Part shown: one piece after another, positions 7,074 through 39,304 of the stretch | Layout: each line of letters opens with the position of its first letter | Position numbering within the stretch: the stretch's first letter is position 1 | Virus record (IMG/VR): IMGVR_UViG_3300025838_000032 | Span: 1 to 64,000 of that record | Direction: 5' to 3' (one strand) | Length of the DNA stretch: 64,000 bases | From: a virus | Lineage: Duplodnaviria > Caudoviricetes | The notes under the pieces: model-generated | Seen by the model: only the letters and a program-made list of their open reading frames with translations | Database searches by the model: none | Told to the model about the DNA's origin: nothing | Program-made: the position numbers and the translations under genes

Positions 7074-7298
7074 ATGAATTGGGACTACCGGTATTCTCAT
7101 CAAGAGATACAGTCTCCGGAGGAGGATGAAGCCACTCTGGGCCATCTCACCTCCGTTCAACATAACACGATGAATAAAGAGTTGTACCAACCCACCCGCA
7201 AAAATATCGTGGAATTGATGAAACTCCTGGGCCCCCAGGGATTGACGCGGGAGCATAGACTCCTGCATCTTCTCGCCCAGGATCATACTCACATCTAA
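7074..7298 (+). CDS. Hypothetical protein (MNWDYRYS...)
   Basis: GGAG SD before ATG at 7074. Confidence 0.6.
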   Translation: MNWDYRYSHQEIQSPEEDEATLGHLTSVQHNTMNKELYQPTRKNIVELMKLLGPQGLTREHRLLHLLAQDHTHI

Positions 7299-7338
7299 TT
7301 CTCTCTATTAATAAACTCTATTAATAAATAGGAATTAT

Positions 7339-7410
7339 AAATCTCTATCATGTATTATGTACTATGTATTGAGAATCAGAAATCTCTATCATGTATTGAG
7401 AATCAGAAAT
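7339..7410. repeat. Overlapping direct repeats in an AT-rich spacer
   Basis: AAATCTCTATCATGTATT at 7339 and 7380; ATGTATTGAGAATCAGAAAT at 7364 and 7391 (27 bp apart). Confidence 0.65.
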
Positions 7411-7470
7411 TCGGTAGTTAGAAGTAAATTAAACTAACAGTTGTACACAAACAAACATAAGGTTGTCCGC

Positions 7471-8760
7471 GTGAAATTCAATTCAGCCAAGAAGAAGACG
7501 GAGAATAGGGTCCCCGCCGCTCCGGGGATTGGGGTTAATTACCAGCCCGGTACTGGGTACGTCAGTCTTGACGTAGACCCCGAGAACCAGCTCGTTGGGA
7601 ACGCCGTAAAGAACGCTGCGGGCGTCTACCTGAAGAAGCACCGAGAGGCTCATGGCCCAGATGCTGAACCGAGCGAAGACGCTCAGAGGCTTTTTGGTAT
7701 TGTCAAGCACCCACAGACGGGTGAATGGCATCACGACCCGGCGTACGCCGCTATCCGGCACACGAATACTCTCGCTGACTATATGGAGCTGCCCCTGGTC
7801 TCTAAGACGTGGGGGAGGCATCCTAATGCCCCGAAGAATGTTGTTCTCGGTAATGGTATACGAACGCCCAGTATGCCAGTCGGTTATGACGAGAATGGCG
7901 AAGGCGTTATGGCCGGTAGCTATAAATGGTCGAATGGTAAGAAGGACCTGGCCAAACCCCTCGAACTGATTGGGACAGCGGACGCATTGCGTCGTCATGC
8001 TTACAGAGATCTTGTCAACAAAGGCGTTACTGACAAGGGAAAATACTGGGATCGTCTTAAGGGTCTAACCCACCTAGTGCACGGTCGTAAGGTGACCGAT
8101 AAGGATCCGCTCCCAGAGAATGAGACTGAGCGTGGCAGCTGGCACAGCCTGGGTGAGAATGGAGAACCCATGCATCTCCACCTCCACGTGCAACACGTTG
8201 TCCACAATATGGCCAATAATTACGACATCGATGAGCAGCGTCTCCCCAAGGGGCCAGATGGTTTAGACGATCAAGACGCTCTCGAGCATGCTAAGAACAT
8301 GTTAGATGACGCTAGGACATCCCGTTTTACCATGTGCAACTGCCCGCACTGTGCCATTAATCTTTCTACTGAGCCAGCGAGCAGTGTTTGGGATACCCAG
8401 CATCACGACGCTGCCGCTAGCAGCAAGGATCCGCTCGTAAGAGAAGCATATTTCCATGAAAATTCCTTCCCAATGGGTAAGGATGATCAAATCGGGAAAA
8501 TGTCTGACCTTGGAGAGGTCGGAAAGCGGTGCCACCACCGGATTTTCTGGTCGAATAACGACGGGTCCTACGTCAACGGGAATAAAGACAGAAGAGTATA
8601 TAACGAATCTCAGGAATTAATCAATCATATGGTTAAAATGCATCGGGAGGCGGGCGAACACCAGCAGAATACGCCGCCGACGATGCTCCATCCCTTCACG
8701 GGTCGGCCAATCGAGGACGAGCTGGGGCTCAGCGCCTTGGCCGAAGGTGTTCTTGACTGA
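7471..8760 (+). CDS. Hypothetical protein (MKFNSAKKK...)
   Basis: Long ORF; GTG at 7471 after AAGG is the likely start; His-rich, with CNCPHC. Confidence 0.75.
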   Translation: MKFNSAKKKTENRVPAAPGIGVNYQPGTGYVSLDVDPENQLVGNAVKNAAGVYLKKHREAHGPDAEPSEDAQRLFGIVKHPQTGEWHHDPAYAAIRHTNTLADYMELPLVSKTWGRHPNAPKNVVLGNGIRTPSMPVGYDENGEGVMAGSYKWSNGKKDLAKPLELIGTADALRRHAYRDLVNKGVTDKGKYWDRLKGLTHLVHGRKVTDKDPLPENETERGSWHSLGENGEPMHLHLHVQHVVHNMANNYDIDEQRLPKGPDGLDDQDALEHAKNMLDDARTSRFTMCNCPHCAINLSTEPASSVWDTQHHDAAASSKDPLVREAYFHENSFPMGKDDQIGKMSDLGEVGKRCHHRIFWSNNDGSYVNGNKDRRVYNESQELINHMVKMHREAGEHQQNTPPTMLHPFTGRPIEDELGLSALAEGVLD

Positions 8761-8801
8761 GGAATGTTACTAAATTGTAACAAAAATATCCTCTTTACCC
8801 C

Positions 8802-9261: not shown

Positions 9262-9747
9262 ATGGACACTCCCGCCCATGATCAACACGTTACTCATTCT
9301 TATTGGGTTGCTTTCCCTGACCATCCTGAGCGCACTTCCGATCCACATTACAAGGATTTTAACGCTTACCGTCGCAGAACAAAGGATTCTGCGCAGTGTG
9401 CTGTTGGTTTGCACCGTAATGATTTTTCTGAATGTTCTCTAGATAAGCCTCTGGAGCTCCATCATTCGCACATCGAGTTCGCCATGCAAAATGGAGTCGA
9501 TCTAAAATGGCTCGAAGTAGATTACCCCGGTGTTTCCAACCCGGATGAAGTCGGTGCATGGGTTGAGAGCGCAGAAAATCTCGTTTGGCTCTGTGAAGAG
9601 CACCATAGAGGGGCTATGGGAGCCCATAATGCCTCTGCAAGCGATTATGAGTCCATCAAGTACGTCAGAAGTCTTATAAGCCGAACTGAGCCAACACAGG
9701 GGGCAATGCAGGCATCCCCACCGAATCCTCCCAAGACGGTAATATGA
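9262..9747 (+). CDS. HNH endonuclease-like protein
   Basis: LELHHSH...NLVWLCEEHHRG..GAH fits the HNH / His-Me finger pattern. Confidence 0.65.
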   Translation: MDTPAHDQHVTHSYWVAFPDHPERTSDPHYKDFNAYRRRTKDSAQCAVGLHRNDFSECSLDKPLELHHSHIEFAMQNGVDLKWLEVDYPGVSNPDEVGAWVESAENLVWLCEEHHRGAMGAHNASASDYESIKYVRSLISRTEPTQGAMQASPPNPPKTVI

Positions 9748-10160
9748 ACTGGAATATTCGCTACGCCTCGGAAAAGAGGGATGTCGTCACCCAACTCGAG
9801 GAAGATTACCCGGAAGACTCGCTCGATTGGGTCAAAAACGACGCAAAATGGTCTGGGCCAGAGAAAATAAACCCCGATGATGTCGATTACAGCAACCAAA
9901 GTAGTTGGCTAGCCTCTCATGAAGAGCAAAAAGTCAAAAAGTTCATGAAAAAGATCAAAAAAGGCAAAGAAAAGCCGGTTGTTCTTGTAAAAACTCCTAA
10001 AAATAAGAAATTTATCGTAATTGACGGTCATCACCGCGCCCTTGCCTACAAAAATCTTGGGAAATCACTTGTTGCGTGGGTCGGAGAGGTAAAAAAAGAA
10101 AAAGGACCGTGGGATACCTTCCACGATGAGCAAAATAAGGTCGAAGCGGTGGATAAATGA
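9744..10160 (+). CDS. ParB/sulfiredoxin-like domain protein
   Basis: KPVVLV...FIVIDGHHRALA is the ParB/Srx signature. Confidence 0.8.
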   Translation: MNWNIRYASEKRDVVTQLEEDYPEDSLDWVKNDAKWSGPEKINPDDVDYSNQSSWLASHEEQKVKKFMKKIKKGKEKPVVLVKTPKNKKFIVIDGHHRALAYKNLGKSLVAWVGEVKKEKGPWDTFHDEQNKVEAVDK

Positions 10161-10483
10161 ACTGGAACGACCGTTACATCAAGCAGGCTGGCAAAGCCGC
10201 CAACGATTTTTACAAGTTTCACGAGGAATTCAAAGAATTTCCTCCAAGGACCGTCGATTTGTGCTCAAAAGGTTCTGAACTCGCCCGCGCCGCGTACCAT
10301 GAGACGAAGCAAGGCCACTTTCTCGGCCTAGCTAAACGTTACGAGAACCACGCTCAGTCGTTAAAGCCACAAGAGTCACAACAACCTCTTTTTGAAGAAG
10401 AACCCACCCGTAAGAACCCCCCAACCCCGTATAAAAACCCAATGTCACACCCCCATTACCTCGGTGATGGATGGATACCATAA
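10157..10483 (+). CDS. Hypothetical protein (MNWNDRY...)
   Basis: ATGA overlap with the upstream gene. Confidence 0.75.
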   Translation: MNWNDRYIKQAGKAANDFYKFHEEFKEFPPRTVDLCSKGSELARAAYHETKQGHFLGLAKRYENHAQSLKPQESQQPLFEEEPTRKNPPTPYKNPMSHPHYLGDGWIP

Positions 10484-12332: not shown

Positions 12333-13238
12333 ATGATGAGATACGCAGACACTAGCTCGGGCAATTACGATAATGACGCCTCGTTATCGGGTATAGAAGC
12401 CCCAACTGAAGATGAAGAGAACGCTGGGTTCGGCATACCAGGCCAGTCTGCGGTAGGAACTGTAGGAAGATTTAGAATATCTAATATTGGCGTACAAGAT
12501 GAGAATGCGGTTGAGAATACCGCACCAACTGGTTTAGATACCATAGATGTCACTGGTGAGCCAAAGACGATAGAGAATGAGGGACTGAGCAGCGTAAGCC
12601 CAGGATCCTTATCAACGATTATTGGAGCGAAGAAAATGAGTTTAGATGCGCGAATCGCTTACGTCATGGAAAATGGCGAGCCATTCTGTAATCACTGCGA
12701 GAGTACCTTCTTGCCGAATAGTTTAGGGCCACGTATGGCTTGCACGAACTGTGGTTGCGGACAACCGAACAATGATCATGGCGCTCTTAATGCTGACTTT
12801 GACCATGTAGAGGGCCCAACCGCTGGGGATCTCACACGTGGGAGCGATATTGTTAAAGAGGAAGTGAAAACGGGTAGCGTCGAAGAGATCATGGGATTCT
12901 TCACCGCCAGCGGTGATGCGAGCAAACTCTATTACCAGGGTTATCAGGATGCTATGGATGGTAAGCCTCTGGATGAAGACCTAGCTCTTTTAAGCAAAGA
13001 CTATTACAACGGATACGAGCAATACAAGTTCTTCAACAAGTCGCCTCAACAAAGTGAAGGCCAAAGCCTTTATGACATTAAGCCTAACAGCAACTCTATC
13101 CCACGCCCTGGCCAGATCACTCCTGGAGAAGAAGACCGTGGGCCTCTTGAATTGACTGATGGTTTTAATAGTGCTACAGCTAGCAAAATTGCATCAATCT
13201 ACCCAATTGATGTAATAAAGAAATTCTTCGAGGTATAA
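12333..13238 (+). CDS. Hypothetical protein with zinc ribbon (MMRYADT...)
   Basis: CNHC...CTNCGC. Confidence 0.75.
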   Translation: MMRYADTSSGNYDNDASLSGIEAPTEDEENAGFGIPGQSAVGTVGRFRISNIGVQDENAVENTAPTGLDTIDVTGEPKTIENEGLSSVSPGSLSTIIGAKKMSLDARIAYVMENGEPFCNHCESTFLPNSLGPRMACTNCGCGQPNNDHGALNADFDHVEGPTAGDLTRGSDIVKEEVKTGSVEEIMGFFTASGDASKLYYQGYQDAMDGKPLDEDLALLSKDYYNGYEQYKFFNKSPQQSEGQSLYDIKPNSNSIPRPGQITPGEEDRGPLELTDGFNSATASKIASIYPIDVIKKFFEV

Positions 13239-13906: not shown

Positions 13907-14614
13907 ATGAACTACGATAACATTGCAAAAGAAGCCAAACTTGCAGCCGCCGACACTGGCTGGTTTAATGGTACATCTGAGAGCATCCTTACACGTCTTG
14001 ACAGACTTCAGGAGATTCTTGATGGCGCTAGGATGGCTGCTAGTGTGCCGACAGCATCGAACCACGAGCTCGAGAGATACGCTAGCATCATAACTGAACT
14101 TGGCGCGGAGAAAGAGCAGCTCGAAAAGCTGGCTTCAGAATATGTTGAGTTCGACACAGAGGATTATCTCAACAGCCTCCCAGGCGGCACTATTGCCAAA
14201 GAGTACCGCATCAGTTCTGCAGGGACGAGCGACCTAGGCGAAGACGATGGTAGCCTGCTTTATCGTACTGCTTCCTCCATCGAGGGAGAGTACGCCGACG
14301 CTGACTGGATCAACTTTGTAACGGCGGGCGCAGAGATCTGGGTAGAAGATCAGAGTACCCGGCTCCTGGACAGCCAGCTTGACACCCGTGAGGCCGCTGT
14401 CTATTACGTAGAGAAGAAGACTTTCCCGATTTTAGACACCGTAAAGCGTGCTTCTATAATTGATAACTTTGTTGACAACGTAGAGATTTGCCGCAGAGCT
14501 AAGAATGAGGGAACTCATTTCCAGAATGTGAAGAGCGCAAGCGCGAATAAATTGTCAGCCAGCTTTGCCCAAGAAGCCGTTGACTACGCATTTGGTGAGA
14601 ACAACTGGTTCTGA
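13907..14614 (+). CDS. Hypothetical protein
   Basis: 235-aa ORF. Confidence 0.75.
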   Translation: MNYDNIAKEAKLAAADTGWFNGTSESILTRLDRLQEILDGARMAASVPTASNHELERYASIITELGAEKEQLEKLASEYVEFDTEDYLNSLPGGTIAKEYRISSAGTSDLGEDDGSLLYRTASSIEGEYADADWINFVTAGAEIWVEDQSTRLLDSQLDTREAAVYYVEKKTFPILDTVKRASIIDNFVDNVEICRRAKNEGTHFQNVKSASANKLSASFAQEAVDYAFGENNWF

Positions 14615-15343: not shown

Positions 15344-15642
15344 GTGAAGAATTTATCTTGCCTGATGGTATAACATTTAATAATGCAGATTCTCAAGAAA
15401 TAAATTTAGATTTATCTTTTGAGAAGATTAACGATACAAAATGCAATAAATGTGATATAATGCTTGAGGCTGTACTTATAACAAATTTTGGTAGGCATGA
15501 AGGAATCATAAGAATACCAAGCAATGACAATACAGTTTGGAAAAACTCTCTACCAAAGGACCGTGTAAGATCAATTAAGATTCTTAACGAAAAACTTTCA
15601 GAGAAGCTTGACAAACACAAAGAAAGACACAAAAATGATTAG
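15340..15642 (+). CDS. Hypothetical protein
   Basis: 100-aa ORF, ATGA-coupled. Confidence 0.65.
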   Translation: MSEEFILPDGITFNNADSQEINLDLSFEKINDTKCNKCDIMLEAVLITNFGRHEGIIRIPSNDNTVWKNSLPKDRVRSIKILNEKLSEKLDKHKERHKND

Positions 15643-15805
15643 GTACAGCACACAACCAAGCCAAGACTCCAACGCATTAACGGACAGTCCTACCTCACCT
15701 ATTATGACGACAAGAGATAATCAGGGTCTTAATGATGGTGGGAAGCCAAGCCAGCAGGATAGAGACTTGCAGGACTTAGATGCCGAGGATGTCAACGACA
15801 ACTAA
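15635..15805 (+). CDS. Small hypothetical protein (MIRYSTQ...)
   Basis: Overlaps the upstream stop; fills the gap. Confidence 0.55.
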   Translation: MIRYSTQPSQDSNALTDSPTSPIMTTRDNQGLNDGGKPSQQDRDLQDLDAEDVNDN

Positions 15806-21132: not shown

Positions 21133-21522
21133 ATGACCTCGATGTTCGACTACGACGATTCAGTAAACTTGGCATGGGATGCCAAAATCGCGGGTAAGAG
21201 TCTTATCGCCGCAAAGCATGATCTATTAACCAAGACCGGTGAGTTCCTTTTTCTTGCGCATAGCCCTAGGGAGCTTGCTCTGCGTATGCAGATGGTCGAA
21301 GAGGATATCGAGAAGATTGCGTACCGCAAACTTGCCAACATCAGTGATTCTAAGGCCAAGTTGGTCCGTGCTGTCTATGAAGAGTGGCAGATCCGCCACG
21401 CCCACTGCCCTTCGTGCTCTGGACAATCAGGCGATCTGGACGCCGGAAAGCGCGATTATAACAGCGACAGTTACGTCGATGCTCTCCACCACCCGGAGCA
21501 CCCAGACACGGTTAATAAGTAA
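21133..21522 (+). CDS. Hypothetical protein
   Basis: SD AAGGAG before ATG at 21133; HAHCPSC. Confidence 0.75.
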   Translation: MTSMFDYDDSVNLAWDAKIAGKSLIAAKHDLLTKTGEFLFLAHSPRELALRMQMVEEDIEKIAYRKLANISDSKAKLVRAVYEEWQIRHAHCPSCSGQSGDLDAGKRDYNSDSYVDALHHPEHPDTVNK

Positions 21523-23634: not shown

Positions 23635-26018
23635 TGTTTAAATTTACTTTTGATGGGAACAACATAAAGACAGCAGCGGCGAAGCCGGGTCGCCGTGCGC
23701 CCGTAAACATTCAGCATTACATCAATGCCAAAGAGAGTAAGAAAAGCCTAAGAGCAGCCGCCCAGAGTCAAAGAGATGAAGAATCTCGCCTAGCTGAGAT
23801 GGATGCTCCATTTGCTTTACATAACGGTGATTCTTGGGAAATAATCCACTCATCTTTGCCTAAATATAGCGGGAAAAGTAAAAGAGGCACCCCTTACGCT
23901 CGTCAACTAAAGTCTTTGCTGAGAAAAAACAATAGTGGCTACGAAAGAGTCCTTTTATCTCCTTCTGACTTTACTCCTCTACTCAATGATAAGAAACTTA
24001 AGCCTTATAATGGTAAGTTAGAGGGTTTTAGGCCGTCCGGATCCAGCGTTAGCAGACAAACCACTAAATTCCTGCGCACGATAGACAACGCTCGGGCAGC
24101 TGACAATCAGGGTGCACCAGTCTCAGATAATACGAATGGGACTTTAGACCCGGACGATCCAATAAATCTTATTAGAACTCATCGGCGCGGTGCCTTACGA
24201 CGAATGTTAAATTCATACGCTCCGTTCAAATCTGGTAAAAATCTTTGTGTTTGTGGAGAAACCCAAGAGAATCACGTAAGCCCGAGCTCTGCGAGAGAAC
24301 ACCACGAGAAAACTGGTGAGCACCTAGAGATACATGATTATTTGCCACAGACAATAGGCTTCGGTGACGCTGGTCACGAAATCCGTGCGAAGCGTTCTCC
24401 GCATCTCTTTTCAATGAGACCGGACAGATCTGGTAACGTAAGGCTATTAAAAGCATTTGATAAAGAGGATGGTCCAAGAACTGAGCAGATGCCAGTCGTT
24501 CGTGTTGGTCTCGAGGCTGATGAATACACTCGTTATACGCGATCTGAATACGCCCAAGAAGGTAAAGGCCAACGCATACAAAGAGCCATCAGTTCTGTAA
24601 CGAACGCTTTAAAAAAGTGCCCAGCATGTAATGGAACAAAAAAGATAAATCCTGATCAAAATGAAAATGCTGTCGATTGCGGAGATTGTTCTGTAGATAA
24701 AATTGTCTATAAAGAAAAAGTTGGCGAGGATGGTAAGCCGACTCTTGAGCCATATACGCGTGGTTTGGGCAACGGGAAACAAGAGTACATTAACCCAGAT
24801 GATGCCCCAATTTGTAAAACATGCCGTGGAGAAAAGAAATTACAGGTTGCTGATCGTTCAAACAACACGACGATAGATTGCCCGGACTGTGATGTAACCG
24901 GTAGAGACACCTCGGCAATTACTTGTAACAATTGTCACTCAGAAAATGGTGCCATAAGGTTAACAACAGATAATACATGCAAATCATGTTCAGGAAAAGG
25001 ATTCTTTGAAACCACTGTTAAACCTTCATTCAAAAAGATAAAAACAAACACTGATAGTGCTGAGAGACGCTCGGGCAATGCTAGATACGCGCTTGAATAC
25101 AAAAGCGATACTTCTGCTGCAACAGGTGTGGACGCATGGAAGGCTCACGGGGATAAAGAATGCACGCGCTGCCATGGTGACGACGAGTCCCAGATGCCAT
25201 CAACAGGGCTTCCTTGCAACTGCAGAATCACTAGTCATGAAGATTCTGATTCTTTGCCAAGTGGATTACGGCTTATACACCCCAACCACATAATTATTCC
25301 AGAGAATCACTATCAAAGAGCTTTGGCTAGAGCTTATGGCGGCAATCTCTCTACTTCTCCACATGAGATTTCTCACGAGCCGAACTACATAGACCCCGAC
25401 ACTAATCAAACCCCTAGCCAGACCTACGGGATTGGTACGTCTCAAGAGTACAAGAATGGGACTAAAAAAATCCCTGATAGCGCCATTCTGGGTGTTTGGA
25501 GCCTTGGTAAGCAAATCCCACAGAAAGTTCTACAGAGACTCAATGATAAGAGCCGCAAGAATTGGAGCAGCAAGAACGCAAAATTTACTGCGTCTAGCGC
25601 AGATTTGACGGACATTAAAACAGAACTAGAACAGATGCATACGTGGCCGGATCTTATCCCTTCAGAAAAAGCGACTGAAGGTAGCGTCATAGAGCGCCAA
25701 CGTCAAAAAAGAATGCGCGTTAATCCGGAAGATTATCCATCGGACGTTAAACCACATGTTTCTAAGGTTGAAAGAACCATGGCAGGATTACCAGATTATG
25801 AGCAGGGACGGTATAACGCCGACTTGGATGAAATCTATGAGAATGCTTCGTCAGGAGCTTTTGATCGTCTAGGATCCAATGTAGATAGATTATTGTCTAA
25901 TGTAAAACGCTTTAGTGGGCCTGAGACACACGATAGACTATCAGAATCGATATCTGGTCTGAAAGAGCTCGCTGGAAGAAAAGAATCTCCAAAGACTGAG
26001 GAATCAGCGAATGTCTAA
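23634..26018 (+). CDS. Large protein with DnaJ-like CxxCxGxG zinc-finger repeats
   Basis: CPACNG, CGDC, CKTCRG, CPDCDVTG, CNNC, CKSCSGKG, CTRCHG. Confidence 0.8.
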   Translation: MFKFTFDGNNIKTAAAKPGRRAPVNIQHYINAKESKKSLRAAAQSQRDEESRLAEMDAPFALHNGDSWEIIHSSLPKYSGKSKRGTPYARQLKSLLRKNNSGYERVLLSPSDFTPLLNDKKLKPYNGKLEGFRPSGSSVSRQTTKFLRTIDNARAADNQGAPVSDNTNGTLDPDDPINLIRTHRRGALRRMLNSYAPFKSGKNLCVCGETQENHVSPSSAREHHEKTGEHLEIHDYLPQTIGFGDAGHEIRAKRSPHLFSMRPDRSGNVRLLKAFDKEDGPRTEQMPVVRVGLEADEYTRYTRSEYAQEGKGQRIQRAISSVTNALKKCPACNGTKKINPDQNENAVDCGDCSVDKIVYKEKVGEDGKPTLEPYTRGLGNGKQEYINPDDAPICKTCRGEKKLQVADRSNNTTIDCPDCDVTGRDTSAITCNNCHSENGAIRLTTDNTCKSCSGKGFFETTVKPSFKKIKTNTDSAERRSGNARYALEYKSDTSAATGVDAWKAHGDKECTRCHGDDESQMPSTGLPCNCRITSHEDSDSLPSGLRLIHPNHIIIPENHYQRALARAYGGNLSTSPHEISHEPNYIDPDTNQTPSQTYGIGTSQEYKNGTKKIPDSAILGVWSLGKQIPQKVLQRLNDKSRKNWSSKNAKFTASSADLTDIKTELEQMHTWPDLIPSEKATEGSVIERQRQKRMRVNPEDYPSDVKPHVSKVERTMAGLPDYEQGRYNADLDEIYENASSGAFDRLGSNVDRLLSNVKRFSGPETHDRLSESISGLKELAGRKESPKTEESANV

Positions 26019-28134
26019 TAAGTTTAACTCAAAATATGCTGCCGACGTAACGGAGACTTCGTTCTCTCCGAGCGACCCAGAGCTAGAGCAAGCTGGCATT
26101 TCTGCTACGCCAACTAATACTTATAATAGTAGAGAGCTTGAGGAACCAGAGGGCCGTCCAAAGTTCACTCAACTTGAAACAACAACGAGAGAAGAAGTCA
26201 GCAGACCTCCGCTTGTCTATTATGGTCCAGATAAGAACATGGACCCAGAGGATCGTATAGAGAGAATCAAAACGGATCCGGAGGCTTTTGCTGAAAAGGA
26301 GAAGGCGTTCCATCAGCGTTCTCAGAGGACTCCAGAGCAACGTTCTAGAATGTCTCGATTTCGTCAGAATATTAGCGATAGGCACACGATCAAAGCAGTT
26401 TTCGCGGCTATCGACAGATCAGCACGAGAGTTATATCCATGCCCAGAATGTGGCGGAGCCTTCAACGGAGGCAAACCAGTTTTGCCTACGGAAAGAAGAC
26501 ACGAGAGAGAATTTTGTCAAACGTGCGCCAACACCGGGCATACGATAATATCTCCAGAGACAGGTTTCTTTGATCTAGAAAGAAAAGCTGCTATACACAA
26601 TGCACACGTAAGTTTTCATAATAAATGGTGCAATCAAACAAAGTGCCACAAAAATTGTGGATTAAACAAAACTGGGTTAGTTGATCAATTACGTAGACAG
26701 CACATAGACTCTGAGGACAGCCGTTTCAATGAAGAAGCCGCTGTCTTGAAGAGAGAAAAGGGTAGAGATCTTAAGCCAGAAGAGGTTGCTCAAATCGCGC
26801 CGAGAGAACCATTGCAGCGTAAGCATACTCACGCCGAACCGGGCGCAGCTGAAAACGTGATCGAAACTGTTGGGCCAGTGGCTCTTATTGATCATTTTAA
26901 GCCAATGACCTCTGCTCATCTATTGGGCGGTCGTGAGCACAGTGATATTACTATGGACGACCACGTTCTAATCACAAATTATGATACTACTAACCCAAAT
27001 GCTTCTATAACATCCAATGAGAAAGAAAAGATGTTTGAGACGTATCGACCGTCCCAGTGGGGAGCTACTGATACGAGCAAAGAACAGGAAGAAAACGGTA
27101 AATCTCATAAAAATAGATTCTTTAAGATACCATTTACACGTAGACCAATAAGAGATGAATCAGTACGCGTCAAAGGGTTTACGGATCCTCAAACAACCGG
27201 TATTGTTACCGGTCTGTCGGCAGATGGAAGATCCGCAAAAGTTGTAGAGTTTGGTACCCCATCTGATGTAAGAATCGAAGAACGCAACACCAGAATGAAT
27301 GGTCGTCCTGATAAAGTAATCAGGAATAATACCATGGAAGCCATTAATGATACAAACGAGCCAGCGAAAAAACCAGAAGATACCGAAAAAAATGCAAAGA
27401 GAAGCAAATTCAAACAACAGGTAGCTTATTTGTATAGCAAGATCGCTCCGTTAAGAACAGAAAGATCACCCGTAGAAAAGCGCGAAGCAGCCGTCTCTTA
27501 CCACCCGGTAGAGAATCTCGCAAGAATGTCAGACATTACTTACCCGTTAGTAGCTACGGTTGGGCATACCCATGAAAAAGTTGCCCGAAAAGACTTAAAA
27601 ATCTCTACCAATAATCAGTTCTATTCTAAAAGCAAGATTGTAACTGCAAAGGTAATTCGTAGAAAAGGTTTGGGTCACAGCCCAGAAGAGATCCGAGATA
27701 CGATAAGTAATACTATTAATAATGAGGCCAGAAGAGAACTAAAAAGATGGGGTACACGAACTAATAAAGTTTTGGGCATAAGTAGAAACGATCCAGAAAG
27801 TCTTCTCCCACACGAAACGGGAGCAGAGATCTCTGAACAAAGTGGAGCTCCAAAGAGACGTAAGTTCTCCCCTCCTAAAAAGTCTGTATCACCAGGTGAT
27901 TTGTTCAGCATTGGTGAATCCGGAGCCTCTATCCCCATGGCTGAATTGCCGCCCGAGATAAACCCAGTTAATTCTGAAGAGGGTATAAACGAAGCGATAG
28001 ATGTTGTAAGAAAAGGCTTGGGCGGTAGAGAGCTAACACCTGAAGAGCACGCTACTGCTAGAAATAATATAAAACAGCGCGGTCACATAAACGGTGCTTT
28101 AGACGATGATTACGAGGAAGACGATGACGAATAA
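26011..28134 (+). CDS. Large charged protein with zinc-finger motifs (MSNKFNSKYAA...)
   Basis: CPECGG, CQTCANTG, CNQTKCHKNC. Confidence 0.8.
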   Translation: MSNKFNSKYAADVTETSFSPSDPELEQAGISATPTNTYNSRELEEPEGRPKFTQLETTTREEVSRPPLVYYGPDKNMDPEDRIERIKTDPEAFAEKEKAFHQRSQRTPEQRSRMSRFRQNISDRHTIKAVFAAIDRSARELYPCPECGGAFNGGKPVLPTERRHEREFCQTCANTGHTIISPETGFFDLERKAAIHNAHVSFHNKWCNQTKCHKNCGLNKTGLVDQLRRQHIDSEDSRFNEEAAVLKREKGRDLKPEEVAQIAPREPLQRKHTHAEPGAAENVIETVGPVALIDHFKPMTSAHLLGGREHSDITMDDHVLITNYDTTNPNASITSNEKEKMFETYRPSQWGATDTSKEQEENGKSHKNRFFKIPFTRRPIRDESVRVKGFTDPQTTGIVTGLSADGRSAKVVEFGTPSDVRIEERNTRMNGRPDKVIRNNTMEAINDTNEPAKKPEDTEKNAKRSKFKQQVAYLYSKIAPLRTERSPVEKREAAVSYHPVENLARMSDITYPLVATVGHTHEKVARKDLKISTNNQFYSKSKIVTAKVIRRKGLGHSPEEIRDTISNTINNEARRELKRWGTRTNKVLGISRNDPESLLPHETGAEISEQSGAPKRRKFSPPKKSVSPGDLFSIGESGASIPMAELPPEINPVNSEEGINEAIDVVRKGLGGRELTPEEHATARNNIKQRGHINGALDDDYEEDDDE

Positions 28135-28603: not shown

Positions 28604-29176
28604 ATGGAACCCCGTTTGAACATAAAAGTAGCCGAGATTTTTGACAACGCCAACCCCGTAGATGCCGACTTCCAGGCCCCGGATGCCAATGGGCAGTTCC
28701 CTCAGTGGCTTGGTGACTTCATCGACCAGAACAGCAATCACGCCCAAAAGAACTGGGATGCTTATGCTGAGCAGCGCCAGGGTCTTGGTGACCAGATCCA
28801 ACGTTACGTTGATGAATCTCACATGCACGCCACCGATGAGAACCCCGCTCAGGATCCTACTCTCATGGCGATGAACCCCTCTCTGGTCAATAGCCCTGAC
28901 CTTAGTGACGTGCCAGCGCCCAAGGCGGCGAGCAAGTTCGCGTCTCAGGCTAATGGCTTCAGAAATAGTCAGGCGCACCCTGACTTTACTCTTGGGCTTG
29001 TTGCCAAGGCTAATACCGGGACCATTGTTAACTCTCGAGTTGTTGCCGAGACCCCGACCACGAAGATCGCCGGTACGGTAATTGCCGTTGGTGATGCTGA
29101 GTTCGCCGTTGTCTGGGATGACAGAACTGCCTCCGTTGAGCGTAAGCGCGACTACGAATTGGTGATTGCCCAATAG
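28604..29176 (+). CDS. Hypothetical protein, possibly virion-associated
   Basis: SD AGGAG; biased codons; SH3-like C-terminus (GTVIAVGDAEFAVVWDD). Confidence 0.75.
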   Translation: MEPRLNIKVAEIFDNANPVDADFQAPDANGQFPQWLGDFIDQNSNHAQKNWDAYAEQRQGLGDQIQRYVDESHMHATDENPAQDPTLMAMNPSLVNSPDLSDVPAPKAASKFASQANGFRNSQAHPDFTLGLVAKANTGTIVNSRVVAETPTTKIAGTVIAVGDAEFAVVWDDRTASVERKRDYELVIAQ

Positions 29177-30756: not shown

Positions 30757-33700
30757 ATGGCGTCAAAAGACTGGAGTGCCTCTTCGGAGCTTAACCGAAT
30801 GAGAGCATCTGGGATAACCCTTCCTAAAAACCCCATCGCTGGGCGTGTCGCCGCACGTGACATGCTGAACCGAGCTAAGACAAGTGGGTCGATGGCTAGC
30901 GAAGTAGGACCATTGGCTATGGCCATGAGCGGGCCTCCGGAAGGCCGTCAACGCCTCAACAAACTAGGTTCTGACTTCCTAGCAGAAAACGGTATGGCAC
31001 GGACTCAGAATCGTAAGCTTGGTGCCGCAACTGGTAGCGATGCACAATGGGCTTGGCCAAAACTTCATGACCCATTCGAGTACTGGCGTGAACGTTGCGT
31101 CTTGCCCGGAGAAGAAATCACTCTTCTTGATGGTCCAAAGAAGATCGAAGATGTAACGTATGGTGATCAAGCCCTAACACACATGGGCCGTTATCGTCGC
31201 GTCCTTGACCTCGGTAATCAAGAGTATGAGGGCAAGGTCTATGAGCTGAAGCCTCGTTATCGTACTTCTATCAAGGCGACTGCTGATCACCCAATTTGGA
31301 CACTCCGCGAAGATGGCGGACAATTCATTCACGTCCAGGATCTAAAGCCAAATGATAAGATTCTTTTCCCAGTAGATCGTAAGATCGAAGACAAAGACTT
31401 CATTGATCTTACAGAAATAATTGATCACTCTGACTTGGTCATTGAGAACGGCTATTTCACTCGTAAATTGAGTGAAAAAAGAAATGCATCACCAAAGCGT
31501 CCGACAGGCAAAATTGGTACGCCAATTAGTTCTTTACCAGTAGAGATTGAATTAACTGATGATTTCCTCTGGTTCCTTGGGCTATACATCGCTGAAGGCT
31601 CTACTGGTGGCACAGATAACAAAACGGTTCACATTTCTTTGTCCACAAAAGAAACAGATTTAATAAATAGAACAGTTAATATTCTTGAAAAGCTCACTGG
31701 CAAAGTAGCAGCTATTCGTGACCATACGAAGTATGGTGACAATTCTGTAATCATTGAACTCACAAATATTCCGTTGTCTCGTGCTCTGCCAGTCCTTTGT
31801 GGCAAAGGATCATATAATAAGCACTTTCCAGAATGGGCGCAATTCTTGCCAGAAGACAAGCAGAAGGCGTTGCTGCGTGGTTACTTTGATGGAGACGGTT
31901 GCTACCAGCCAGACATCTCTTCTTGTTTCACTTCATCTAACCATTTGCGTGATCAGATCCTCCAGATGATGGCAAGAAATGGATTCTTCCCATCTGTCTA
32001 TCACAGAACCACTAAGTCATTCTCAAAGAAGATCGACGGTAAGAATATTGTTCTTAGTCGGACAGAGAATAGCGCGTTCCTGAATTGGATGGATATCCAC
32101 ATTTTTGATGAGATTGATGATGATGTTATTGTCAAGCGCGGTCGTAAATACCCAATTGAACATGTAGAAGAAGGCGTCTGGGTCCCCGTAGAAGAAATAA
32201 TCGAATCAGATTACAAAGGTACTATTTATAGTCTTACGATTACGGAAGACCACTCGTATTGTGTTTCTGGTATTGCAACACGCAATACATGGTGGTTCAA
32301 TATGGAGGACCCCGATGAACAGACTCGTAAGATCCGAGACTGGGCTCGTCTTCTTTACACTACTCACCACTTGGTGCCTGGTCTTATCGACATTTATACT
32401 CGTTTCCCACTTCTAGATATTGAGTTAGTTCACCCGGATAAGCGGATCGCTGATTTTTATAATGACTTATTCTTTAATGGTCTTAACTACCAGGAATTTC
32501 TGTATGATTTAGGTAGAGAACATTGGGTGGTTGGCGAAGCTTTCGCTATGGGATCCTGGCACGATGGTATCGGTGCTTGGGAAGAGGATGAACTTATTAA
32601 TCCCAACGACGTTATCGTTGCTAAGAACCGCGCTTTAAGAACATACCAATACCACGTCAAAGTGCCTGAGGAAATCAAGCGTCTTATTGAGCGTCGTGAT
32701 CCTCCTCAGGAATACGCCATGCTCATGCAGCTTTACCCGGACGTAGTCGCCTGGGCTAGACAGGATAAAGAGATCCCTGTTTCTGATGTGATTATGAAGC
32801 AGGTTAAGTTCTCCGCCAATTCGTGGAGCGAGCATGGTACTCCTATTCTACTTCGTGCTTTTCGCATGCTTATGCTTGAGGAAAGTCTTAACGCCGCGCA
32901 AGACGCTATTGCTGACCGACTCTATTCTCCTCTTATTCTGGCTACCCTTGGTCTGCCTGACGTAGACCAGGATGGTCCGTGGATCCCTGATGCTCAAGAG
33001 CTCCAGAGTCTCCGTGACGACCTTGCGATGGCTATCAACTCGGACTTCCGTCTTATGACGTATCACCACGGGCTACAGATCCAAAACGCTTTTGGACGAG
33101 AGTCTATGCCCCGCTTAGACCAAGACTTTATGAGAGTCCAGACCAATGTCATGGGCGTCTTTGGTATCGGTGCTGACCTTATCCAAGGTGGTCAGGGTGG
33201 GACATACGCTTCTGGAGCTTTGAACCGTGAGCTTATTACGCAGATGCTCTCTACGTATCAGAATAAGATTAATAAGTTCTTCCGTAGCCGTATGGAACCC
33301 GTAGCAGAGAGGCAGGGCCACTATGAGATGCGTAACGTGGGCGGTCAGCATGTTCCTGTTATGGAAACTGTTCTTATGGTCGATGAAGAGACTGGCGCTG
33401 AGTACGTTGAGGAACGCCCCAAGCTAGCTATACCTGAGGTCAGATTCCGCTCTATGAACCTCCGTGATGAGACAGTAGAACGTGGGTTCTTGCAGCAATT
33501 AGCTGCCAGCGGGTTCCCGATCTCTCTTGGCACGCTTGCCGTCAATATCCCAATTGACTTCGATGATGAGCTCGAGGCCCGTAAGGAAGAGAAGATCAAG
33601 ACTGTTGTCGAAGAGCAGAAGTTCAAAGCAGAGCTCTTCAACCGCCTCTATACTCTACAACTTCCTATCCCGCCAGAATACGTTCAGGAGTACCAGGCGT

Positions 33701-34272
33701 ATCTGGCCATGCTCGAGGATCCGTCTCTTGGCGCCCAGCTAGCTCCGGGAGCGATGGCCGGTCTTGTTACTCCTCCTGCTGCTCCTAATATGACTGATGT
33801 TGGCGCTATGGGTAGTGATGCCGCCGCAGGTGCACAAGTTTATCCAAGTATAAACCAGGAGGCTCGCCAACGCCCAGAGATCTCCTATGAGCAACGTAAG
33901 TCTCAACCCAAGCCTTCCAAAAAGGGTCCAAAGAATGGACCGAAGAAGAAGACAGCCTCTGTAGTCGGATGGGATGAAGACGATGAGTTCCAGGGTCGGG
34001 TTGAGTACGGTGATCGTATGAAATTCGCCGTGCCTTTTGAATCGAAGAAACGCAAGCGTATGAAGCTCGCTTCTGGTATGAAGATTATTATTGATGATTC
34101 ATACGAGAAATTTGATGAAAATGAATTTATGAAGCATCTATCATCCATCATTGATGAGCCTATGATCCAAGAGCCTACTGACCTTATGGAGCATAGTTCT
34201 GGTGAAGGTGGTATGGATCAGCCCGCAAGAAAACAAATTGATCCAACAGAAGAAGATTCTTTCCCTGAATAG
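30757..34272 (+). CDS. Portal protein precursor containing an intein
   Basis: Lies just before the protease, scaffold and capsid genes. Extein segments (RDWARLLY, HGTPILLRAFR, RLYSPLIL.TLG) resemble large actinophage portals, from memory. Confidence 0.75.
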   Translation: MASKDWSASSELNRMRASGITLPKNPIAGRVAARDMLNRAKTSGSMASEVGPLAMAMSGPPEGRQRLNKLGSDFLAENGMARTQNRKLGAATGSDAQWAWPKLHDPFEYWRERCVLPGEEITLLDGPKKIEDVTYGDQALTHMGRYRRVLDLGNQEYEGKVYELKPRYRTSIKATADHPIWTLREDGGQFIHVQDLKPNDKILFPVDRKIEDKDFIDLTEIIDHSDLVIENGYFTRKLSEKRNASPKRPTGKIGTPISSLPVEIELTDDFLWFLGLYIAEGSTGGTDNKTVHISLSTKETDLINRTVNILEKLTGKVAAIRDHTKYGDNSVIIELTNIPLSRALPVLCGKGSYNKHFPEWAQFLPEDKQKALLRGYFDGDGCYQPDISSCFTSSNHLRDQILQMMARNGFFPSVYHRTTKSFSKKIDGKNIVLSRTENSAFLNWMDIHIFDEIDDDVIVKRGRKYPIEHVEEGVWVPVEEIIESDYKGTIYSLTITEDHSYCVSGIATRNTWWFNMEDPDEQTRKIRDWARLLYTTHHLVPGLIDIYTRFPLLDIELVHPDKRIADFYNDLFFNGLNYQEFLYDLGREHWVVGEAFAMGSWHDGIGAWEEDELINPNDVIVAKNRALRTYQYHVKVPEEIKRLIERRDPPQEYAMLMQLYPDVVAWARQDKEIPVSDVIMKQVKFSANSWSEHGTPILLRAFRMLMLEESLNAAQDAIADRLYSPLILATLGLPDVDQDGPWIPDAQELQSLRDDLAMAINSDFRLMTYHHGLQIQNAFGRESMPRLDQDFMRVQTNVMGVFGIGADLIQGGQGGTYASGALNRELITQMLSTYQNKINKFFRSRMEPVAERQGHYEMRNVGGQHVPVMETVLMVDEETGAEYVEERPKLAIPEVRFRSMNLRDETVERGFLQQLAASGFPISLGTLAVNIPIDFDDELEARKEEKIKTVVEEQKFKAELFNRLYTLQLPIPPEYVQEYQAYLAMLEDPSLGAQLAPGAMAGLVTPPAAPNMTDVGAMGSDAAAGAQVYPSINQEARQRPEISYEQRKSQPKPSKKGPKNGPKKKTASVVGWDEDDEFQGRVEYGDRMKFAVPFESKKRKRMKLASGMKIIIDDSYEKFDENEFMKHLSSIIDEPMIQEPTDLMEHSSGEGGMDQPARKQIDPTEEDSFPE
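31096..32286 (+). mobile_element. Intein with LAGLIDADG homing endonuclease (397 aa, residues 114-510)
   Basis: Starts CVLPG; block B ATADHP; LWFLGLYIAEGS and LLRGYFDGDG; block F YSLTITEDHSY; ends ATRN followed by Thr+1. Confidence 0.92.
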
Positions 34273-35699: not shown

Positions 35700-36395
35700 A
35701 TGCCATTTCTTAAGGTTTCGGACAATATAAAGAAATACGCCCTTGAGACTATCAGGGTTCCTATTTCTCCACTCGGGAATTGTCCACAATGCCAAAGCAA
35801 CGGTTATAGAGATGGTATCTGCCCAGATTGTAGCTATATCGATCCGCAGGTTCTTGAAGCAATTCAAGAGTGGCAGAACGCTATGGGGATTCAACAAGTA
35901 ATAAAGCAACAGCAATCAGAATTGTCTGAACAGAATCCTAACGCGAAAGCTGCTTATAGAAGCCTGTCTTTCGTAGATATTTTACCATCGATTAGCAACG
36001 CAAAGACTAAATGCCCAAATTGCGGGCAAATGACCTTCAATAATGATTCCTTAAAAAAGGGAGAATTATCCGGATCTTGTGAGAATCCTGCGTGCAGTCA
36101 TGAAATTGCTGGTGCCTTAGGGTTTAAAAGACCCAATTACTTGGGTATAGATCCTGAGATAATAAATTCTGTTAAGCGCAACTTTTTAAGTCCTGCGTCA
36201 ATAAAGATCGAAAAGAATAAAAAGAAGTTGAAGAAAAGCGCGAAAGAGTCTTACGACCCAGGCGCTTTACAAGACGATTCTATGAATGCCTCTATGGATG
36301 CTACCACTCGTATGTGGGACATGCTCAAAGACAATGCACAAATAGATTCACAGAATAAAAGCGAAGAAAACGCAAAAAACAGCGAGGAGCTATAA
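35700..36395 (+). CDS. Zinc-ribbon protein
   Basis: CPQC, CPDC, CPNC, CENPAC. Confidence 0.7.
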   Translation: MPFLKVSDNIKKYALETIRVPISPLGNCPQCQSNGYRDGICPDCSYIDPQVLEAIQEWQNAMGIQQVIKQQQSELSEQNPNAKAAYRSLSFVDILPSISNAKTKCPNCGQMTFNNDSLKKGELSGSCENPACSHEIAGALGFKRPNYLGIDPEIINSVKRNFLSPASIKIEKNKKKLKKSAKESYDPGALQDDSMNASMDATTRMWDMLKDNAQIDSQNKSEENAKNSEEL

Positions 36396-37717
36396 TGAGT
36401 CGTTTCGATGACGAGCTGGTTAAGACAGCCGAGAACGCTTACCAAGAGCGAGGTCTCTCTGGTCAGTTTACCACACCAAGACAACAGCCATACGACCAGG
36501 TCAATACGGTTGGAACCGACTCGGCTCCTGGTGTGACTCAGGCACCCGCCCCTGCAGAAGAGGCTGGAGACTGGATCGCCAACCAGCCCGCTGCGCACGT
36601 AGTTGATGTACGTGACCTTGATGCTGCTGATCAGGGCGAGATTATCGGTGGTCCCGGCTCGAGCGCCGTCTACGCCGAGGGTGGTCCCGTATACGCTAGC
36701 GTGAACCCGATTGATGAAAGTCTCTACAACGTTTACAAGGCTAGCCGAGACATTCGTACGGCTATCGATGAGCAAACTGACTTTGACTTCTCTAACTTAA
36801 TGACTGCTTCTACAGATGCGGCTACTGTACTTCGTTTCGCTAGCACAGACGACAATGCCAAGCAGGTCATTGGTACTGTGGCGAGCATCGTTCAGGACAT
36901 TGAGAACGACCTTGCCACAACTGGCGATTACAAACAGGCCGCTAAGGACCTTACAGAGCTCGAGAGCCTGTTGAAGGAAGTTAAGAAGGCTGCTACTGGC
37001 GATTCCGATGAAGAGTCTGACGATGACTCTGATGATTCTAAGACTGCCTCTAAGAAAGACGATGACTGCACCTGTGACGGAGAGGGCACTTGCAAGTCTT
37101 GCAAGAAAGCTAAGAAGACCAAGAAGAAGCAGAAGAAGGCTTCTAATGGTAACCAGGAAAGCCTCGCTGTTATCGATGTACGTGACCTTGACGATCAGGC
37201 TGGTCTGTTCGACCGCCAGCGCGTTATGACTCCTGACCACGTCACCAACCCTCTTGTTCCTGAAAAGGTGAATGGTGAGGACGCTGCTTATGTCCCATTC
37301 TACAACGATGGTGCTGAGTCGGGCGTAACTCCTCAGGTTGACCACGACCGCAATGCGTGGCCCTATGACGGCACTAACCCAGCCCTAGTTGGCTATGCGG
37401 GCACCGTTGCCGCCGTACAGGCTAGCCGTGAGAAGATTTTTGAGGCTCTGCAGGTCGTAGAGCGTCTTGAGAAGCTGGGCATGGTCAATCACGATGACCG
37501 CGCCAAGCATATCGCAAAGTTTGAACAAATGTCAGATGCCAGTCTTACCGGTTTCAAAACGGCACTGGATGCGTTCGAAGAGTCTGGGGCTCGTCAACCC
37601 CGGAGCCAGAAAGTGGCAAGTGGTAATAACCGCATGCCAGAAATGGGTCGGTTGACAACGGCCTCAACAGTTACTCGTCAGGATGTTCAGTCTGACGATT
37701 GGCTGATGACACTTTAA
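36395..37717 (+). CDS. Probable capsid scaffolding protein
   Basis: Acidic, helical, biased codons; between the protease and the decoration/capsid genes. Confidence 0.55.
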   Translation: MSRFDDELVKTAENAYQERGLSGQFTTPRQQPYDQVNTVGTDSAPGVTQAPAPAEEAGDWIANQPAAHVVDVRDLDAADQGEIIGGPGSSAVYAEGGPVYASVNPIDESLYNVYKASRDIRTAIDEQTDFDFSNLMTASTDAATVLRFASTDDNAKQVIGTVASIVQDIENDLATTGDYKQAAKDLTELESLLKEVKKAATGDSDEESDDDSDDSKTASKKDDDCTCDGEGTCKSCKKAKKTKKKQKKASNGNQESLAVIDVRDLDDQAGLFDRQRVMTPDHVTNPLVPEKVNGEDAAYVPFYNDGAESGVTPQVDHDRNAWPYDGTNPALVGYAGTVAAVQASREKIFEALQVVERLEKLGMVNHDDRAKHIAKFEQMSDASLTGFKTALDAFEESGARQPRSQKVASGNNRMPEMGRLTTASTVTRQDVQSDDWLMTL

Positions 37718-37745
37718 CCAAATCCCCTACTAAGGAGAAAGAAAA

Positions 37746-38267
37746 ATGCTGCAACTCAATAGCGTAGCCAACGTTGGGGTTCACCGTACGTGCACCCCAC
37801 TGTACGAAAAGTACGAGGCTACACCCTACAACACATTCCTTGACCCCGCCGATACGACTAACATCTACTCGGGTATGGTCTTGTACCGTACTGGTCCTGA
37901 CACCGTAGCCAATGCTAGCGCCGCGACTTCTGTCGTTGGTGCCAAGCCTTTCGGCCTCTCGGCTCTTGACCGTAACCCTAACATCGATGATGTTACTCAG
38001 GTTGGTGTTAACTCTTGGGCGGTTTGGCTCGGTGGTGCGAACGCGTTCTTCACCATTACGGCTCCCGCGTTTGACACGACTCAGTCGTACTCTATCACTA
38101 CCTCTGGTGTCCGTACTCTTCTGTACACCGCCTCTGGTACTGGTCAGCTTACTTCCGTTTCGGGTGCTGCCACAACTCTGGCTGCTGTTCCTGTCGCTGA
38201 GCTTATCGATGTTATTAGCCCAACACAAATTGTTGTCCGTCTCGTCCCATTCGGCGCAACAGCCTAA
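37746..38267 (+). CDS. Head decoration / capsid-stabilising protein
   Basis: 173 aa immediately before the MCP; IYSGMVL..TG, PFGLSA; highly biased codons. Confidence 0.65.
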   Translation: MLQLNSVANVGVHRTCTPLYEKYEATPYNTFLDPADTTNIYSGMVLYRTGPDTVANASAATSVVGAKPFGLSALDRNPNIDDVTQVGVNSWAVWLGGANAFFTITAPAFDTTQSYSITTSGVRTLLYTASGTGQLTSVSGAATTLAAVPVAELIDVISPTQIVVRLVPFGATA

Positions 38268-38290
38268 GGTATCTGAAAGGAAATATAAAC

Positions 38291-39304
38291 ATGAGTACTA
38301 TCCTTCCCAATGGCGCTGTTGCCGAGCATCTCGCTCCGCGCACGGCCAAAAAGTCGGACGATTATGTCGCCGGTATTGTAGAGGCTCAAGAGCGTCTCGC
38401 TGCGGCTACTGGTCGTAAGACTGCCACCCGTGAGGAGAAGCAGCGTCGTCTGGCCGGTGTTCTGGCTGACAAGGACAACTACATGGTCCGTTTGGGCCAG
38501 GGTATGATCGGTCCTATCCAGCTGAAGCTCCGCTATCAGGGTATGACCCGTAACGTCCTCCTTGAGGATCCGTTAACTCCCGGTGTCCCCGTCATGTATG
38601 ACGTATTGGACGAGTATGGTCAGGCTTACATTCTTTCCGGTAACGAGGGTGAGGTCCGTGTGACTCCCTTCGAAGGTAAGAAGGTTCCAGTCCGCTTGTT
38701 CCGTATTGCCACCTTCCCTCAGATCAAGAAGGAAGACCTGTGGTACCTGCGTGTAAACATCGTTGAGTACGCTCAGGACATGTCCAAGCAGGCCATCATG
38801 ATGCAGGAGGACGCCCGCCTTATCACCGTCCTCGAGGCTGCTATCAACAACTACGCTGTTGACCCCAACCACGTAGTTTCCCCCAACCACATCGTCAACG
38901 AGCTCTCGGGTTACATTACTCCTGACTCGATGTACGACCTCGTGGCCCTCATTGAGGTTCACCAGTTGGAGGCTAGCCGTCTTCTGTTCAACCCCATCGA
39001 CTACCGTGACCTCTACAAGTGGGACATCAACCAGACTGGTTGGGCCTTCAAGGACCGCGTTGTTGCCGGTGAGCGTATTGTTCAGTTCGGTGGCTTCCAG
39101 GTTCAGCGTAGCATTGAGGTCCCTCAGGGAACTGTTTACATGACTCCTAGCCCCGAGTTCCTCGGTGTCTTCCCTGTCATGTACTCGCTCGATGTTGAGG
39201 AGAACCACACCCCTGAGAAGTTCCACAAGGGCTGGGTCATGGACGAGCTCGTTTCCGAGATAGTCTTGAATCCACGTGGCCTTGGCAAGATCGTGAAGGC
39301 ATGA
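38291..39304 (+). CDS. Major capsid protein (HK97 fold, Bxz1-like)
   Basis: MIGPIQLKLRYQG, LLEDPLTPGVP, FRIATFPQIKKEDL, EFLGVFPVMYSLDVEE, KGWVMDEL, NPRG recalled from cluster C mycobacteriophage capsids; extreme codon bias. Confidence 0.9.
   Translation: MSTILPNGAVAEHLAPRTAKKSDDYVAGIVEAQERLAAATGRKTATREEKQRRLAGVLADKDNYMVRLGQGMIGPIQLKLRYQGMTRNVLLEDPLTPGVPVMYDVLDEYGQAYILSGNEGEVRVTPFEGKKVPVRLFRIATFPQIKKEDLWYLRVNIVEYAQDMSKQAIMMQEDARLITVLEAAINNYAVDPNHVVSPNHIVNELSGYITPDSMYDLVALIEVHQLEASRLLFNPIDYRDLYKWDINQTGWAFKDRVVAGERIVQFGGFQVQRSIEVPQGTVYMTPSPEFLGVFPVMYSLDVEENHTPEKFHKGWVMDELVSEIVLNPRGLGKIVKA

Follow-up and report, generated by a model that had tools for sequence, protein, structure and literature searches.

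A short N-terminal tag on many unrelated proteins of a freshwater phage clade, a possible capsid-targeting leader, and a candidate site for the head protease

A short peptide with the consensus MNW(N/S)xRYA stands at the start of otherwise unrelated proteins in a phage of the class Caudoviricetes and in many of its relatives. The phage is represented by IMG/VR record IMGVR_UViG_3300025838_000032, an 83.8-kb linear contig. Our window, meaning the whole stretch of DNA that was analysed, is its first 64,000 nucleotides (nt), and counts made in six reading frames cover the entire contig. Without the tag, the tagged proteins of the relatives fall into at least 40 families, and the end of the tag matches a motif, [KR]-x-A-[AS], that is in excess in the head proteins and not in the tail proteins. 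We read the tag as a capsid-targeting leader in the style of phage T4 that would end in a site for the head protease, in a lineage that is not that of T4 and with a different motif, and we regard this reading as evenly balanced between right and wrong.

An N-terminal tag shared by unrelated proteins

An earlier reading of the window from its letters alone (the sequence-only reading) had proposed that 13 unrelated proteins begin with related peptides. All of the peptides that it quoted are present at or near the places where it put them; the open reading frame (ORF) at 7471 starts with GTG, and in the ORF that begins at 21133 LAWDAKIAG occupies residues 13-21. The pattern NW[ND].RY has three matches in the contig, all directly after a start methionine (7074, 9744, and 10157), and KFNS also has three, all at N-termini (7471, 21548, and 26011). 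Eleven 4-mers are common to the N-termini, against 2.8 in internal control windows, and only 0.08% of 5000 controls reach 11. Pairwise BLOSUM comparison of the N-termini gave a modest overall excess, the signal sitting in cliques. A HMMER profile of the 10-residue tag returned fragmentary local matches only and was replaced by an ungapped scoring matrix, built from the relatives only and then applied to this contig. With this matrix the N-termini at 9744 (30 bits), 10157 (15.7), 26011 (9.5), and 7074 (7.9) stand above background, while those at 13907, 21133, 23634, and 36395 (the scaffold) and the peptide of the major capsid protein (MCP) do not score above background as copies of the tag. The shared leader is therefore real, about five of the 13 listed N-termini lack it, and roughly half of the list stands.

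The window holds four genes with a full tag, two with a truncated tag, and two that share KFNS only (Table 1); the “large cohort” of cargo genes previously suggested for 7-37 kb is not supported. The two truncated families (12333 and 15635) retain only M-(x)-R-Y-(A/S), and these short starts are kept in their orthologs. The zinc-finger protein at 26011 has a variant built on F, and its orthologs start MLRKKFNAKYAND, MTDKKQFNSKYAID, and MNRPIFNSKTASF; together they follow the N-terminal pattern x(2-5)-F-N-(S/A)-K-(Y/T)-A.

The phage has many near relatives among IMG/VR contigs, and from these we collected 79 distinct tagged N-termini. Their consensus is M-N(85%)-W-N/S(89%)-x-R(97%)-Y-A(81%)-S/K/A/T-E/D(58%), and 75 of 87 tags have their W at position 3. 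S or A follows R-Y-A in 42% of tags and is missing from the other 58%. The bodies of these proteins form 41 clusters with no detectable mutual similarity, and the families include a ParB-like nuclease, a 473-residue amidase (PF01425), an HNH/helix-turn-helix (HTH) protein, and a cupin. Related contigs hold five and eight genes with an ATG-AAY-TGG-...-MGN-TAY start, with zero such starts on the other strand and zero matches to a control pattern. Ten of 20 further relatives hold 26 MNW..RY starts, all on the strand of the MCP, and here the control pattern had no match in 1.8 Mb. Searching the relatives in six frames with W[NS].RY[AS] placed 35 of 40 matches at the start of an ORF of at least 40 residues. 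A pattern scan of the whole of IMG/VR gave 54 matches in 30 stretches, nearly all from one freshwater clade, and 596 Gb of cellular genomes gave 88 single matches in unrelated taxa, a number estimated to be about chance level. With the viral matches nearly confined to the clade and the cellular ones near chance, the tag is a trait of a single phage clade rather than a signal used by cells. Signal peptides, Tat signals, type VII signals, and clamp-binding motifs were dropped as identities for the tag because the sequence does not fit them.

Selection acts on the peptide. In this contig the codons of the tag alternate (AAT/AAC, TAT/TAC, and CGG/CGC/CGT/AGA/AGG) and the upstream DNA differs from gene to gene, and in the relatives the Ser of the tag is encoded by both TCN and AGT, for which selection on the peptide is the sole explanation. 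These synonymous changes, including TCN/AGY and CGN/AGR, together with the unconserved upstream DNA, argue for selection on the peptide. One family alternates between MNWNLRYAKD and MSFNERFAKE, which indicates that F can stand in for both W and Y. The E or D at position 10 was considered as a T4- or phiKZ-type x-x-E site and rejected, as it occurs in only 58% of tags and is absent from the scaffold sites described below.

The tag is also a separable leader that lies outside the folded protein. In an AlphaFold2 model of the 9744 protein, residues 1-8 (MNWNIRYA) have a predicted local distance difference test score (pLDDT) below 50 and are disordered, and residues 11-133 form a confident fold. 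The alignment with ParB-like homologs of more distant phages begins only at residue 14 of this protein, and these homologs either lack a tag or are fused to the C-termini of portal proteins. The gene at 10492 has no tag, yet its family has a tagged member in one relative.

Two tagged starts in relatives have unusual forms. In contig L002 (position 9777), a 13-codon ORF (MNWSERYVRGLIK-stop) carries a perfect tag and is probably what is left of a tagged gene that has decayed. On the minus strand of contig L114 (start 7691), a tagged protein begins MNWSIRYASERYAIA, with the RYA core in tandem repeat.

A short motif in head proteins and the prohead protease

The sequence-only reading had also proposed that the head protease cuts at (K/R)-x-A. 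We compared motif counts with per-protein shuffles and, to control for composition and clustering, with counts of the reversed motif. The bare form proved too loose, with weak enrichment (z ~3), and the proposal holds in the narrower form [KR]-x-A-[AS]. Head-module proteins contain 15 such sites against 3.8 ± 2.1 expected (z 5.3) and the 7-30 kb proteins 22 against 8.5 ± 2.7 (z 4.9), whereas the tail proteins, with 9 against 9.6 expected, show no excess. Forward-to-reversed counts are 15:4 for the head (one-sided binomial ~0.01), 22:11 for 7-30 kb, and 9:8 for the tail. The excess is concentrated in the 13907 protein (8:1, z 10.7), the scaffold (6:0), the 28604 protein (3:1), the portal (5:1), and the protease (2:0), which bears out the internal copies noticed earlier in portal and scaffold.

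The sites keep their positions among orthologs. In 19 aligned scaffold orthologs the site columns are kept and the second residue varies (RFAS/RVAS/RKAS/KSAS/RTAS; KQAA/RQAS; KVAS/KLAS/RVAS). Forward-to-reversed counts, which are not independent among orthologs and in which the richest proteins were picked post hoc, are 84:12 over these 19 scaffolds, 199:43 over 45 scaffold orthologs, 41:1 over the protease family, and 55:6 over the orthologs of the 13907 protein, whose site positions are conserved and one of whose sites, ERYAS, is the core of the tag. For this reason our argument rests on the a priori comparison of head with tail and on positional conservation. Read from the sequences, this pattern is the footprint that would be expected of a protease recognition site, and we consider it rather probable that [KR]-x-A-[AS] is the site of the head protease. 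The 13907 protein would then be a candidate protease substrate or head-core protein. The tag ends in R-Y-A-(S/A) and so matches this enrichment-derived motif where S or A follows. At the place of PRTAKK in this phage, the capsid protein of Rhodococcus phage E3 reads G-R-F-A-K-A, and no cleavage data were found in the capsid paper on Mycobacterium phage Myrna. E3 also encodes an 895-residue protease-scaffold fusion (gp77; our L163, 5084-7771), the scaffold part of which contains RTAA, KSAA, REAS, RSAA, and RIAA.

The gene upstream of the scaffold region encodes a prohead maturation protease (Table 1). A search of its sequence against PDB sequences gave no match, so its assignment by structure comes from a model built on 25 homologs (pLDDT 86) and compared by fold search. 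The model matched the varicella-zoster virus protease (Z 10.2, root-mean-square deviation (rmsd) 2.5, 114 residues), T4 gp21 (5JBL; Z 10.0, rmsd 2.5, 125 residues), and the human cytomegalovirus protease (Z 7.6), with unrelated folds at Z 6 or below, and it is on this model that the protein is assigned the fold of T4 gp21 and herpesvirus assemblin. H84 and S142 are invariant among homologs and are the putative catalytic residues. Herpesvirus assemblins cut between Ala and Ser, at (V/L/I)-x-Ala|Ser in their scaffold precursors. Released pseudorabies virus assemblin ends in Ala225 (PMC4498786). Such Ala|Ser cutting makes a site centred on Ala-Ser plausible for a protease of this fold. The protease also has invariant C152, C155, C166, H168, and C194, a set that suggests a zinc-binding insert, and one copy of the motif (GKYAS) lies within this putative insert.

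Links of tagged proteins to the virion

The C-termini of portal proteins face the interior of the capsid. Of 10 more distant phages, 8 carry their counterpart of the tagged ParB-like protein as a C-terminal domain of the portal, and three portal families are involved. A second tagged protein shares its core domain with long multidomain phage proteins, where it occurs alongside Phage_portal, Peptidase_S78_2, Zeta toxin, ParBc, HNH, and Dps domains. Polyvalent proteins, portal fusions, and the ParB domain of the P1 DdrB type have been read as packaged and injected effectors (Iyer et al. 2017, PMC5512222). Portals with a C-terminal ParB-like domain (DGHHR) behind an Ala/Pro-rich linker are found in the IMG/VR contigs L005 (7514-10792), L007 (7673-11152), L011 (7967-10384), L008 (5145-7301), and L012 (408-2375), and one portal-ParB-like fusion carries a NUDIX domain as well.

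A second link is one of expression. A promoter-like motif, TGTAAW-N18-TAG, occurs nine times in the window against 1.1 expected. It precedes the first tagged gene, the genes at 13907 and 28604, the protease gene, and several tail genes, with copies in front of 40134, 49461, and 51820, and the arrangement is alike in some relatives.

A possible capsid-targeting leader and its alternatives

The reading that we favour runs as follows. The tag would be a short, flexible N-terminal leader through which many unrelated accessory proteins enter the prohead as it assembles, and its binding partner would probably be the scaffold core or the protease. Binding would fall to the N-W-(N/S) half, and the R-Y-A-(S/A) half would serve as the site for the protease. 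The prohead protease would cut [KR]-x-A-[AS] in the scaffold, in itself, at the ends of the portal, in two other proteins, and in the tag, and the cargo, its tag removed, would be delivered along with the DNA. The binding, the cleavage after Ala, the packaging, and the injection of the tagged proteins are steps that we infer. Several observations weigh against this reading. In the truncated tags (MIRYS, MRYA) the N-W half is missing, an oddity in a targeting signal, and the S or A of the proposed site is present in just the 42% of tags given above; the cleavage motif is itself deduced from enrichment alone. The 473-residue amidase and the HNH/HTH protein would be among the cargo, and such passengers are bulky or unusual. 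A distance of 15-25 kb separates the head module from the tagged genes, which adjoin the early region, and the complete relative G017 has no tagged gene at all.

Among the alternatives, the tag might be a docking peptide for a different shared partner (a hub of host or phage, for example a chaperone, the replisome, or RNA polymerase, or else the large zinc-finger proteins of the phage), on proteins that remain cytoplasmic without ever being packaged; the [KR]-x-A-[AS] sites of the head would then be a separate matter. Many short linear motifs are disordered terminal peptides of this kind, here with W and Y four residues apart, and a cytoplasmic role would suit the enzymes of the tagged set, the tags without S or A after RYA, and the place of the tagged genes next to the early region rather than in the head module. 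However, docking leaves aside that the R-Y-A-S core is the type of site conserved in the scaffold and, as ERYAS, in the 13907 protein, that homologs are fused to portals, and that the tagged cluster and the virion genes have a promoter-like motif in common. No candidate partner was found, and we think this explanation unlikely. The portal fusions are equally unexplained if the tag is an N-terminal degron for timed removal by a host AAA+ protease or by the phage protease outside the capsid, as is the F-type tag on large conserved proteins beside the head module. Bacterial N-terminal recognition signals for proteases of the ClpXP type exist, the tag resembles a protease site, and its exact N-terminal position is conserved, most tags having the W at residue 3. 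Yet the destruction of at least 40 families is hard to explain, we know of no bacterial degron with this sequence, and a degron seems to us improbable.

The tag could also be an expression cassette, in which a start that is translated well is retained as new genes are captured, with no role in the finished protein. This would fit the fast turnover of the tagged region, the ATGA stop-start overlaps, which favour a second codon starting with A, and the 13-codon remnant MNWSERYVRGLIK* in a relative, but the free synonymous variation (CGN/AGR, TCN/AGY) and the unconserved upstream DNA show that the peptide and not the RNA is selected, and the exchange of W and Y for F in orthologs conserves chemistry rather than codons. 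We therefore hold it to be very improbable. Chance similarity, or common descent of paralogs, would account for those listed N-termini that are no better than background, and the three large KFNS proteins could indeed be paralogs. It is scarcely credible for the tag as a whole, given the N-terminal position of 3 of 3 and 35 of 40 occurrences, the control pattern without a match, the 41 dissimilar body clusters, and the existence of untagged homologs.

The closest parallel to a capsid-targeting leader of this kind is found in T4, whose internal proteins (IPI-III, Alt) are diverse and have in common only an N-terminal capsid-targeting sequence (CTS), which attaches to the prohead core and which gp21 cuts off (PMC3012670, PMC7411985). 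As in T4, a leader of about 10 residues stands on unrelated, fast-evolving accessory proteins, a protease of the gp21 fold and a scaffold are encoded, and the end of the leader would be a motif of the kind that the protease also encounters in the scaffold. In contrast, the two leaders have no sequence similarity (MNW(N/S)xRYA here, MKTYQEFIAE in T4), the putative site is [KR]-x-A-[AS] rather than (L/I)-x-E, and there are far more tagged families here. Because the leader and the site differ from those of T4, and because the phage is not T4-like, the tag system is an analogue of the CTS and not a member by descent.

Herpesvirus assemblins provide another comparison. The fold is the same, the proposed site is likewise centred on Ala-Ser, and the scaffold would again be the main substrate, whereas here K or R stands two residues before the Ala and the position of the cut is predicted. 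To our knowledge, herpesviruses have no leader system for cargo. In staphylococcal phage 80alpha, capsid and scaffold proteins carry a leader of the Prp/ribosomal protein L27 type; here, by contrast, the MCP starts MSTILPNG and the scaffold MSRFDDEL, and neither is tagged. With the polyvalent, portal-fused, and MuF-fused effectors (PMC5512222), the tagged proteins share the ParB-like nuclease, HNH, and acetyltransferase-type neighbours, and homologs of two of them are found in portal fusions and in long multidomain proteins. Unlike these, the tagged proteins of the window are single-domain products of solo genes with their own leaders, and fusions are seen only in other phages. Somewhat more tentatively than we read the tag itself, we suggest that an actinophage-like freshwater lineage built a load-and-clip system independently, combining an 8-residue tag able to load any protein into an HK97-type capsid, a herpesvirus-like Ala-Ser protease, and the unbundled modules of portal fusions and polyvalent proteins.

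If the capsid-targeting reading is true, such leaders would be a recurrent way to send anti-host proteins in with the DNA rather than a peculiarity of T4. The tag would then give a simple sequence rule for picking out injected cargo among genes of unknown function in uncultivated phages, it would suggest a role for about 40 gene families that now lack one, and it would offer a very short tag for loading foreign proteins into capsids. A protease specificity of [KR]-x-A|S would also connect the proteases of phages and herpesviruses.

Genomic setting and other features

The first 6 kb of the window hold short minus-strand genes, and a long plus-strand block begins at 7 kb; the G+C content of the phage is about 45%. 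The capsid gene is closest to those of Myrna and E3 (76-78% over ~260 nt), and the MCP, cement protein, and protease are nearest to those of actinobacteriophages, such as these two. The head module runs in the order portal, protease, scaffold-associated protein, scaffold, cement protein, and MCP. Gene content in the tagged region turns over fast among relatives. The 7074 ORF has no family match, no Pfam model matches the protease, the MCP, or most of the tagged proteins, and neither the tagged ParB-like protein nor the 13907 protein had a match in searches of cultured phages.

Table 1. Tagged genes, motif-bearing genes, head-module genes, and promoter-like sites of the window
Feature	Position	Strand	Remarks
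Promoter-like sites TGTAAW-N18-TAG	7008, 13853, 28548, 34999, 40002, 42726, 49411, 51800; 19058	+; - (19058)	
Promoter-like copy upstream of first tagged gene	7008..7034	+	40 nt upstream of 7074
74-residue ORF, full tag MNWDYRYS	7074..7298	+	7.9 bits; GGAG Shine-Dalgarno upstream
429-residue ORF, GTG start, (M)KFNSAK	7471..8760	+	Weak F-type variant; shares only KFNS; no score with the tag matrix
138-residue ParB-like (DGHHR) protein, canonical tag MNWNIRYASE	9744..10160	+	30 bits
108-residue ORF, tag MNWNDRYIKQ	10157..10483	+	15.7 bits; ATGA start overlaps stop of 9744
301-residue Cys-rich ORF, truncated tag M(M)RYAD	12333..13238	+	Orthologs start MRYATQ, MRYATE
235-residue protein	13907..14614	+	Eight [KR]-x-A-[AS] sites including ERYAS; N-terminal EAKLAA
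56-residue ORF, truncated tag MIRYST	15635..15805	+	Orthologs start MIRYSQ, MIRYSN
480-residue ORF, MKFNSSR	21548..22990	+	Weak F-type variant
707-residue zinc-finger protein, F-type tag MSNKFNSKYAAD	26011..28134	+	9.5 bits
190-residue protein	28604..29176	+	Three conserved [KR]-x-A-[AS] sites; orthologs 11:1 forward:reversed
Portal protein (intein inside)	30757..34272	+	Motif sites near both ends (residues 30, 1065, 1103)
Prohead maturation protease, gp21/assemblin fold (predicted)	35029/35035-35694	+	phrog_18299, 1e-23
231-residue scaffold-associated protein	35700..36395	+	Between protease and scaffold
Scaffold protein	36395..37717	+	Six [KR]-x-A-[AS] sites, reversed 0; conserved in orthologs
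Cement protein	37746-38267		PF23968
Major capsid protein	38291..39304	+	First ~15 residues variable, then conserved P-R-(T/V)-A-(K/R)-K

Some features of the neighbouring genes deserve mention. In some relatives (L056, L058, L061, and L076-L085), including the tag-free type of G017, the 35700 protein is fused to the N-terminus of the scaffold. The scaffold of the G017 type lacks the N-terminal half that is present in the scaffold of the window; G017 is the only complete tag-free relative. Upstream of the head module, between 21548 and 28134, lie three large proteins (480, 794, and 707 residues) with DnaJ-type CxxCxGxG fingers, which have no other family match and no counterpart in G017. The portal protein is 1171 residues long and contains an intein with a LAGLIDADG homing endonuclease (PF14890 at residues 149-507, PF14528 at 368-421), the match to portal proteins resuming at residue 514.

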